Of a DNA stretch of 3,454 nucleotides, positions 773-1,000 are shown piece by piece. The first letter of the stretch is position 1. Each line of letters begins with the position of its first letter. The position numbers and the translations under genes are program-made. The notes below the pieces were generated by a model. The model had not been told where the DNA came from. It did no database searches and was given only the letters and a program-made list of their open reading frames with translations. The stretch comes from Escherichia coli. GTDB lineage: Bacteria; Pseudomonadota; Gammaproteobacteria; Enterobacterales; Enterobacteriaceae. The stretch lies in NCBI RefSeq assembly GCF_003334405.1, contig NZ_QOWM01000034.1; one strand, 5' to 3'.

Positions 773-799
773 GGGCAGGAAGTGAACCGCTTCCTGCCC
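773..799 (+). other. Perfect 10-bp stem-loop (GGGCAGGAAG / loop TGAACCG / CTTCCTGCCC); possible weak terminator or RNA-stabilising hairpin
   Basis: Perfect inverted repeat seen directly. Followed by TTTAACAAAAAA, which has only 3 T, so it is not a canonical intrinsic terminator. It sits between the small peptide ORF and the RBS of the next ORF. Confidence 0.4.
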
Positions 800-820
800 T
801 TTAACAAAAAAGGAGGATTT

Positions 821-1000
821 ATGGATTTTATGAGCATTTTGGGGCGCTGTTTACTTCTTCCTTTCCCTGTTGCGATGTTTGTCGGTTGCCTGTTTCCTGG
901 CATCGATGATCGCTTATCCGGAATGCTTATGAGTGTTGCTGTGGGATGTTTATCGTGGTATGTCACCAGACCGAAGAACCAACAGATAAAGGCTGCGTAA
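821..1000 (+). CDS. Small hypothetical membrane protein (59 aa from ATG 821; the track's GTG start at 782 would give 72 aa)
   Basis: ORF track 782..1000. AGGAGG at 811-816 lies 4 nt before the ATG at 821, which favours the shorter start; the 782 start lies inside the hairpin. Two hydrophobic segments (ILGRCLLLPFPVAMFVGCLF and MLMSVAVGCLSWYV). Confidence 0.45.
   Translation: MDFMSILGRCLLLPFPVAMFVGCLFPGIDDRLSGMLMSVAVGCLSWYVTRPKNQQIKAA

Follow-up and report, generated by a model that had tools for sequence, protein, structure and literature searches.

The 3454-nt window of Escherichia coli plasmid DNA analysed here contains dqlB, the toxin gene of a dqlB/agrB type I toxin–antitoxin system, followed on the plus strand by a GC-rich hairpin at positions 771–801 and by an open reading frame (ORF) for a 59-amino-acid (aa) protein, ORF59, at 821–1000. 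Comparison of sequences identifies the hairpin as a homologue of the chromosomal dinQ terminator stem-loop SL9, conserved across the dinQ/dql family that was defined by Kristiansen et al. 2016 (PMC5066626). With a probability of about 0.6, we favour the reading in which SL9 terminates the dqlB mRNA and ORF59 is an accessory small membrane protein that lives on read-through of this terminator; this figure covers both the identity of the hairpin, which is near certain, and the model of expression, which is less so. The hairpin, the toxin and the antitoxin are already known, and the linkage of ORF59 to them is a modest new addition to a known system.

A preliminary description of the window had pointed to a perfect 10-bp stem-loop at 773–799, and this GC-rich core is present, with GGGCAGGAAG (773–782) pairing with CTTCCTGCCC (790–799) around a 7-nt loop. 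Two A-U pairs lengthen the core to a 12-bp stem (771–782 and 790–801), and RNAfold places two further pairs within the loop at 783–789. The predicted free energy of the hairpin is −24.4 kcal/mol (z = −4.2; none of 200 dinucleotide shuffles folded as well) and shuffled windows contain a mean of 0.04 perfect 10-bp hairpins, indicating that the structure is not a product of chance. The same description had located the hairpin correctly between the toxin gene and a Shine-Dalgarno sequence, and its AGGAGG at 811–816, ATG at 821 and 59-aa ORF at 821–1000 are all as quoted, but its spacings were each one nucleotide too long: the core begins after 21 nt (752–772), not 22, from the dqlB stop codon and ends 11 nt (800–810), not 12, before AGGAGG. 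The hairpin is framed by conserved sequence on the plus strand. Upstream lies the block GGAAACGTAACT (759–770), which is nearly invariant in the dinQ/dql family, fully so in columns G11–A19 of our alignment A1, and is also found in K-12 dinQ. Downstream lies the tail TAACAAAAA (802–810), which together with U800–U802 forms the short U-tract UUUAAC and at which the homology of the dqlB cassette ends.

In the dinQ literature the terminator is designated SL9 (A295–U325) and Rho-independent terminators are given for all dql genes (PMC5066626), while Northern blots and 3′ mapping fit a full-length dinQ RNA of ~330 nt (PMC3567139). The window hairpin occupies the position of SL9, with a stem that starts at 771, no more than ~25 nt past the Dql toxin stop codon (749–751), and the flanks GGAAACGTAAYTAAGG...CCTTTAAY are common to the window, K-12 dinQ and all dql loci. 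K-12 dinQ ends in GCGGAAACGTAATTAAGGGCTAAGAG-CACACTA-CTCTTAGCCCTTTAAC, with the same flanks as the window and an inner stem that is changed complementarily. We fetched 14 other dqlB loci from IncX1, IncX3, IncI, IncK, IncL/M, IncHI2 and IncF-type plasmids, and all 14 carry a hairpin at the same place between GGAAACGTAAYTAAGG and CCTTTAAY. Their inner stems vary, alternatives being GGGCAGAGGG/CCTTCTGCCC, GGCCGGAGG/CCTCCGGCC and GGCGGGGGG/TCCCCGCC, and the raw sequences of these loci show the compensation in the stem directly. A genome-wide pattern scan with GGAAACGTANNTAARGG was unspecific, most of its 120 loci being chance matches; the nine with an upstream DinQ/Dql peptide were used, and the scan added Citrobacter, E. 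albertii and further hairpin variants.

With a covariance model of the helix we recovered 29 instances, 28 of them at the 3′ end of dqlB or dinQ with scores of 51–86 bits and one, at 29 bits, in a partial second copy in a Klebsiella plasmid (locus L004). Base pairs were counted on the covariance-model alignment because in the MAFFT alignment A1 the stems of IncX3 and IncL/M, which are shorter, were out of register. Among 21 distinct dinQ/dql sequences, 97.6% of the cells in this alignment are standard-paired, a value biased towards the helix since the alignment was fitted to the structure. Compensatory changes on both sides affect six of the 12 pairs (33 cells), the observed covariation score was reached by none of 500 shuffles, and slid registers left 47–75% of cells paired, all with lower scores.

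By the canonical rule for intrinsic terminators, a GC-rich stem followed by at least five T in eight nucleotides, the hairpin fails on the plus strand (tail TTTAACAA) and scores as terminator-like on the minus strand only (tail AGTTACGTTT). K-12 dinQ deviates alike from the canonical U-tract, and the UUUAAC tail recurs at thousands of loci with no downstream ORF, including chromosomal dinQ. The poor U-tract is therefore no adaptation to ORF59 and, judged from these sequences, is a trait of the dinQ/dql family as a whole. The preliminary description was right that the U-tract is weak, and the leakiness that it proposed agrees with the reading favoured here; where it set a leaky element against a full terminator, however, the hairpin is the conserved SL9 terminator of the whole family and not a special separator of two genes. 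A convergent gene abuts the hairpin in many relatives and in the chromosome, which makes a bidirectional role plausible. The loop at 783–789 has a conservation of its own, with AC, usually ACC, invariant across dinQ and all dql variants above a stem that varies freely (A38 and C39 in alignment A1); conserved loop bases are not expected of a plain terminator.

The hairpin also marks a boundary. A sensitive blastn search with window positions 640–1010 matched 4833 plasmid records, 666 of them with at least 80% coverage, and most of the matches end at query positions 167–171, corresponding to window 806–810, just past TTTAACAAAAA. Homology thus stops ~10 nt beyond the hairpin, which identifies it as the 3′ edge of a mobile cassette. 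ORF59 was found in 726 plasmids of PLSDB, 669 of them at ≥80% coverage, a set that practically coincides with the 666 plasmids carrying both dqlB and ORF59; about 14% of dqlB plasmids have ORF59 and ~86% lack it. At every ORF59 locus that we fetched, dqlB lies 66–69 nt upstream. This spacing is kept in IncX4, IncX1, IncHI2, IncF-type and other contexts, and the downstream neighbours vary between a resolvase gene, other plus-strand genes and a minus-strand gene. The motif TTTAGTTACAACATTC comes directly after the hairpin tail in IncX3 and IncX1 plasmids that lack ORF59, whereas in the window and in L004, L016 and L145 it comes after ORF59 instead. The shifted position of TTTAGTTACAACATTC indicates that ORF59, together with a hairpin at its stop codon (987–1010), behaves as a ~205-bp indel located after SL9 and before the next element of the backbone. 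The stop-codon hairpin and SL9 share an outer stem and tail, AAGG...CCTTTAAT, and the former is closest to the IncX3-type SL9 (AAGGCCGG...CCGGCCTTTAAT); it could be a partial copy of SL9 or a recombination site for the gain and loss of ORF59. A 2571-bp contig of the Pasteurellaceae draft assembly of Haemophilus sputorum CCUG 13788 (L031) contains dqlB and the hairpin together with the beginning of ORF59. Both the DqlB peptide of this contig and the stretch from its hairpin to ORF59 match the Klebsiella plasmid L004 exactly, and it is likely to represent contamination or a small enterobacterial plasmid fragment in the assembly.

ORF59 is a real gene under purifying selection. Among six to eight distinct alleles, the ratio of nonsynonymous (pN) to synonymous (pS) difference is 0.2–0.5 overall and 0.05–0.13 in codons 1–25, and the substitutions in the second hydrophobic segment are conservative; the C-terminal half has a pN/pS of 0.97 in the comparison of the window with L019. 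Every distinct variant keeps GGAG at the same spacing, even the divergent L145 and L146, in which the N-terminal 20 residues are invariant as well. The divergent proteins P0044 and P0046, recovered by exhaustive profile search and encoded by DNA with a pS of ~0.9, keep MDFMSIL(G/K)R.LLLP, the acidic loop ADD(K/R) and SW..T(K/R)P. The gene begins at ATG 821, which is also the start used in RefSeq (WP_001694198.1, ‘hypothetical protein’). A 72-aa version from GTG 782, already thought unlikely in the preliminary description, was rejected, this codon being GTT in the divergent loci L016, L145 and L146.

The hydropathy profile shows two hydrophobic segments, predicted as helices, with an acidic loop between them and a basic tail after them. 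An AlphaFold2 model has helices at residues 3–11, 14–23 and 30–49, with a low predicted local distance difference test (pLDDT) score of 63. Under the positive-inside rule, these features suggest an inner-membrane helical hairpin of N-in/C-in topology, whose acidic loop (DDR) would face the periplasm and whose C-terminal tail is basic. The earlier view of the ORF as a gene for a hydrophobic protein of two segments, in close linkage with the toxin, is thus upheld by pN/pS, hydropathy and the constant linkage to dqlB. A lipoprotein was considered in view of a lipobox-like FVGC at residues 20–23 and rejected because no cysteine of ORF59 is conserved: Ser replaces Cys23 in P0019 and P0044, and Ala replaces it in P0046; P0044 and P0046 have Leu in place of Cys10, and P0024 and P0044 have lost Cys43.

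ORF59 had no match in any of four profile libraries (Pfam, NCBIfam, PADLOC and PHROGs). A database search for the protein, which the preliminary description had suggested, found homologues only in a narrow enterobacterial plasmid family among 5.8 billion and 1.84 billion proteins, the exhaustive profile search of the 1.84 billion representatives yielding this same family and otherwise low-complexity noise. A convergent 58-aa ORF that stands behind the hairpin in IncI and IncK plasmids proved to be an unrelated soluble protein. Truncated, frameshifted and internally deleted ORF59 alleles circulate beside dqlB. Two of them, P0043 after residue 24 and P0028 after residue 45, run on as ...SGTVAKLAMRQPFVLFKGLTF..., a continuation that we take to resemble the translated terminal inverted repeat of IS26, in which case IS26 would presumably interrupt ORF59 in some plasmids. 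A third, P0038, is a 39-aa in-frame deletion form, with the deletion lying between the two VGCL repeats of ORF59.

A consensus scan of the plus strand found no sigma-70-like site between 440 and 1268, and the stretch 600–830 has just one TAnnnT hexamer, at 661, which is poor. ORF59 therefore appears likeliest to be expressed by read-through of a leaky SL9, as no promoter-like site precedes it. Its membership in the dqlB transcription unit, as first proposed in the preliminary description, is most probable on the same grounds and on those of its own downstream terminator hairpin. This second hairpin (987–1010, plus strand), the probable terminator of the unit, is a predicted 10-bp helix that holds the ORF59 stop codon TAA (998–1000) in a GUAA loop. 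Compensatory changes preserve it in L003, L004, L009, L016, L022, L145 and L146 (helix variants UGC/GUG, CGC/GCG and CCGC/GUGG), and in several relatives T6 or T4AT3 follows the helix, making it a canonical terminator there. It is absent in L019 and L021, where further plus-strand genes follow.

In the model that we favour, the dqlB promoter, the 5′ untranslated region (UTR), dqlB, SL9, ORF59 and the terminator would form a single unit. Most dqlB transcripts would end at ~803, giving an mRNA of ~355 nt, and SL9 would shield this long-lived toxin mRNA from 3′ exonucleases. A fraction passing the short U-tract of SL9 would yield a bicistronic RNA of ~560 nt that ends near 1010 and supports a low level of ORF59 expression. 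ORF59 would then be an accessory passenger of the cassette, dispensable for toxin–antitoxin function. The dqlB/agrB system was shown experimentally in 2025 to be a plasmid addiction module on pOXA-48 (IncL) and on an IncX3 plasmid (PMC12365149, PMC12317039). The IncL/M (L013) and IncX3 (L008) loci have no ORF59, and since the validated systems lack it, ORF59 is probably accessory and not needed for the function of the module. With most dqlB plasmids and the validated types devoid of it, ORF59 is not a regular component of dqlB/agrB. Nearly the same DqlB peptide occurs with ORF59 (L145) and without it (L008), and ORF59 diverges several-fold faster than dqlB (pN of 0.37 versus 0.07 for the pair of window and L145). 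Cappable-seq and RNA-seq data exist for the IncX4 plasmid pHNSHP23 (PRJNA759279, PMC8725589).

Several points weigh against this reading. A discrete RNA of ~330 nt is made from chromosomal dinQ, which shares the UUUAAC tail, so SL9 may be efficient and the leakage small, and ORF59 would then be poorly transcribed. The ORF59 Shine-Dalgarno sequence is predicted to pair with codons 12–15, which could limit translation, although this pairing is not kept in L016 and L004. The structural model of ORF59 is of low confidence (pLDDT 63), and the strict one-way linkage of ORF59 to dqlB on several backbones fits a passenger poorly and would be shown by a functional partner too. Taken further, an efficient SL9 could leave ORF59 a near-silent hitch-hiker of little current function, transcribed from a non-sigma-70 or otherwise unrecognised promoter or by occasional read-through. 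The discrete full-length RNA of the homologous dinQ hairpin (PMC3567139), the long, GC-rich SL9 stem, the many disrupted ORF59 alleles and the pN/pS of 0.97 in the C-terminal half against L019 would all be consistent with such a fate. It is harder to reconcile with clear purifying selection across deep divergence, with a Shine-Dalgarno sequence and N-terminal 20 residues that are invariant even in L145 and L146, with a dedicated terminator hairpin maintained by compensatory changes and with the lack of a visible alternative promoter, and we regard it as doubtful but not negligible.

Purifying selection would also suit a functional third component, made only from toxin-gene read-through, with a modulating effect on membrane-bound DqlB, for instance as a buffer against leaky toxin or as a means of tuning killing. 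Both proteins are small membrane peptides, ORF59 is found only directly behind dqlB (666 linked cases against 669 copies of the ORF), and the 66–69-nt spacing is constant across plasmid types with different downstream neighbours. However, ~86% of dqlB plasmids do without ORF59, the validated modules work in its absence (PMC12365149, PMC12317039; L013 and L008), near-identical DqlB peptides exist with and without it, disrupted ORF59 alleles persist beside intact dqlB, and ORF59 diverges much faster than its neighbour. We consider this role unlikely, and the immunity factor or modulator that the preliminary description had raised as one possibility finds no support, as the toxin works as an addiction module with agrB alone where ORF59 is absent. 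A more specific proposal, in which ORF59 is a dedicated DqlB partner, a two-helix membrane protein supplied by terminator leakage, and some loci, including those of the globally spread mcr-1 IncX4 plasmids, are three-component type I systems, is less probable still. Least probable by far is a role of ORF59 as a second toxin of type I-like character, under the control of an antisense RNA that would cover its ribosome-binding site and end at the hairpin as a bidirectional terminator. A speculative promoter-like site on the minus strand (TAAACA-17-TAAAAT, 853–825) lies inside the first ORF59 codons, the hairpin is terminator-like on that strand only, with the tail AGTTACGTTT, and the predicted antisense RNA of 57 nt would have a free CCUCCU 5′ end followed by the hairpin; ORF59 is, moreover, small and hydrophobic. 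Yet the site matches the consensus in only nine of 12 positions, such sites are common (seven found in the region against 2.7 expected), and its hexamers are lost in L145 and L146, the −10 element becoming TAAAGT or TGAAAT and the −35 element AAGAAG. Unlike known type I toxins, ORF59 has no promoter of its own, and it has two hydrophobic segments, not one.

The reading of ORF59 as an accessory protein expressed by terminator read-through concerns roughly one dqlB plasmid in seven, among them the IncX4 backbone, a plasmid type for which a major part in carrying the colistin-resistance gene mcr-1 has been reported (PMC8725589). In the literature searched, we found no description of a promoterless conserved membrane-protein gene with its own terminator that is fixed behind the dqlB terminator. 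Should ORF59 be only a passenger, it would be a neat example of a gene sustained by leakage through a terminator; should it act on the toxin, the understanding of dqlB addiction modules and of their targeting by plasmid-curing strategies would change.

The gene simply called a toxin in the preliminary description belongs to the known dqlB/agrB type I toxin–antitoxin system, and the cassette in the window is complete. This assignment follows from matches to Rfam AgrB and NCBIfam DqlB, an AgrB-complementary repeat in the toxin 5′ UTR and fitting promoter-like sites. dqlB (656–751, plus strand) encodes a 31-aa DinQ-like type I toxin that matches NCBIfam NF041473 with 71.9 bits against a cut-off of 35, and in near-identical plasmids the gene is labelled dqlB in RefSeq (‘DinQ-like type I toxin DqlB’). 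Its stop codon TGA at 749–751 is followed by a second in-frame TGA. The antitoxin small RNA (sRNA) agrB is encoded at 294–381 on the minus strand and matches Rfam RF02891 (AgrB) over its full length with 62 bits against a gathering score of 40 (E 2.4e-9). A consensus scan places a promoter-like site for it, TTGACA-17-TACTAT, at 417–389 on the minus strand, from which agrB is transcribed, and its terminator hairpin lies at 302–318 in plus-strand coordinates. The same scan found ATGTCA-18-TATACT at 411–440 on the plus strand, with a predicted start near 447. As the putative dqlB promoter, this site would give a 5′ UTR of ~210 nt, comparable to that of dinQ (PMC5066626). Positions 548–580 in this 5′ UTR form a direct repeat with 350–382 (85% identity over 33 nt), which makes them complementary to the 5′ end of agrB on the minus strand. 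The window thus holds all the elements of a type I system: the DqlB peptide, an opposite-strand AgrB sRNA and complementarity of AgrB to the toxin 5′ UTR.

A CTG-N9-CAG motif (CTGGTTATACTTCAG) at 430–444 overlaps the predicted −10 box of dqlB. It is like the LexA boxes of dinQ but has a spacing of 9 nt, not 10, and SOS control of the plasmid dqlB is uncertain for this reason. Two of the fetched loci contain two copies, or a copy and a partial copy, of the dqlB 3′ module (L010 at 225–288 and 909–972; L004 at 892–947 and 1544–1608); the doubling occurs in IncI-gamma and in an IncF-type Klebsiella plasmid.

The window as a whole is conjugative-plasmid backbone of IncX4 type. A megablast search of PLSDB with the window matched 2154 plasmid records, and the best matches are E. 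coli, Salmonella and Klebsiella plasmids of ~31–34 kb that are alike in size and gene order; all of the best-matching plasmids with a replicon call are IncX4. In near-identical plasmids, RefSeq lists in order an H-NS-like protein, dqlB, the 59-aa hypothetical protein, a ParA/MipZ-like ATPase and a small ribbon-helix-helix protein. Only two PLSDB records cover at least 80% of the window. The stretch 2428–3209, missing in most IncX4 plasmids, which have a DUF2806 gene there instead, contains an ORF for a 71-aa hydrophobic protein (2428–2643) and one for a 117-aa protein with a signal-peptide-like N-terminus (2856–3209), and neither had a family match in the profile libraries. Downstream of ORF59, a perfect 16-bp inverted repeat with the arms TTTAGTTACAACATTC (1023–1038) and GAATGTTGTAACTAAA (1149–1164), 110 nt apart, encloses a GC-rich hairpin near 1106–1128. 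The TTTAGTTACAACATTC-type motif adjoins a serine-recombinase (resolvase) gene in the relatives L004, L006 and L016. No resolvase gene is present in the window, and the repeat (1023–1164) may for that reason be only a remnant of a resolution site. Arrays of a GTGACATACA-type repeat and palindromes at 1243–1415 and 2056–2113 flank the parA-like gene (1412–2059), the second of them lying upstream of the ribbon-helix-helix gene (2134–2403). They are probably binding sites of a partition protein or a centromere. Weak Rfam microRNA (miRNA) matches at 1313–1396 were dismissed as a mere reflection of the palindrome there.

The closest known counterpart of the window hairpin is SL9 of the chromosomal dinQ/agrAB system (Weel-Sneve 2013, PMC3567139; Kristiansen 2016, PMC5066626). 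Both hairpins lie just past the toxin stop codon and share the flanks GGAAACGTAAYTAAGG and CCTTTAAC, the outer GGGC/GCCC stem, an AC-containing loop and a short U-tract, and the inner stems differ by compensatory changes. dinQ SL9 lies between the convergent genes dinQ and gor, whereas the window hairpin precedes a co-directional ORF. The dqlB/agrB modules of pOXA-48 (IncL) and of the IncX3 plasmid (PMC12365149, PMC12317039) have the same toxin family, AgrB sRNA family, 5′ UTR site and 3′ hairpin as the window. Those cassettes end at the hairpin, with no 59-aa ORF, whereas the window adds a unit of Shine-Dalgarno sequence, ORF and second hairpin. The hok/sok system likewise has a stable, structured toxin mRNA with a stem-loop at its 3′ end and encodes a small membrane toxin, and in hok the 3′ stem-loop contributes to mRNA stability (general knowledge, PMC5066626). 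It has no sequence relationship to the system in the window. Activation occurs through 3′ processing in hok, which is coupled to the overlapping mok frame, and through 5′ processing in dinQ-type mRNAs; the additional ORF of the window lies downstream of the toxin gene without overlapping it.

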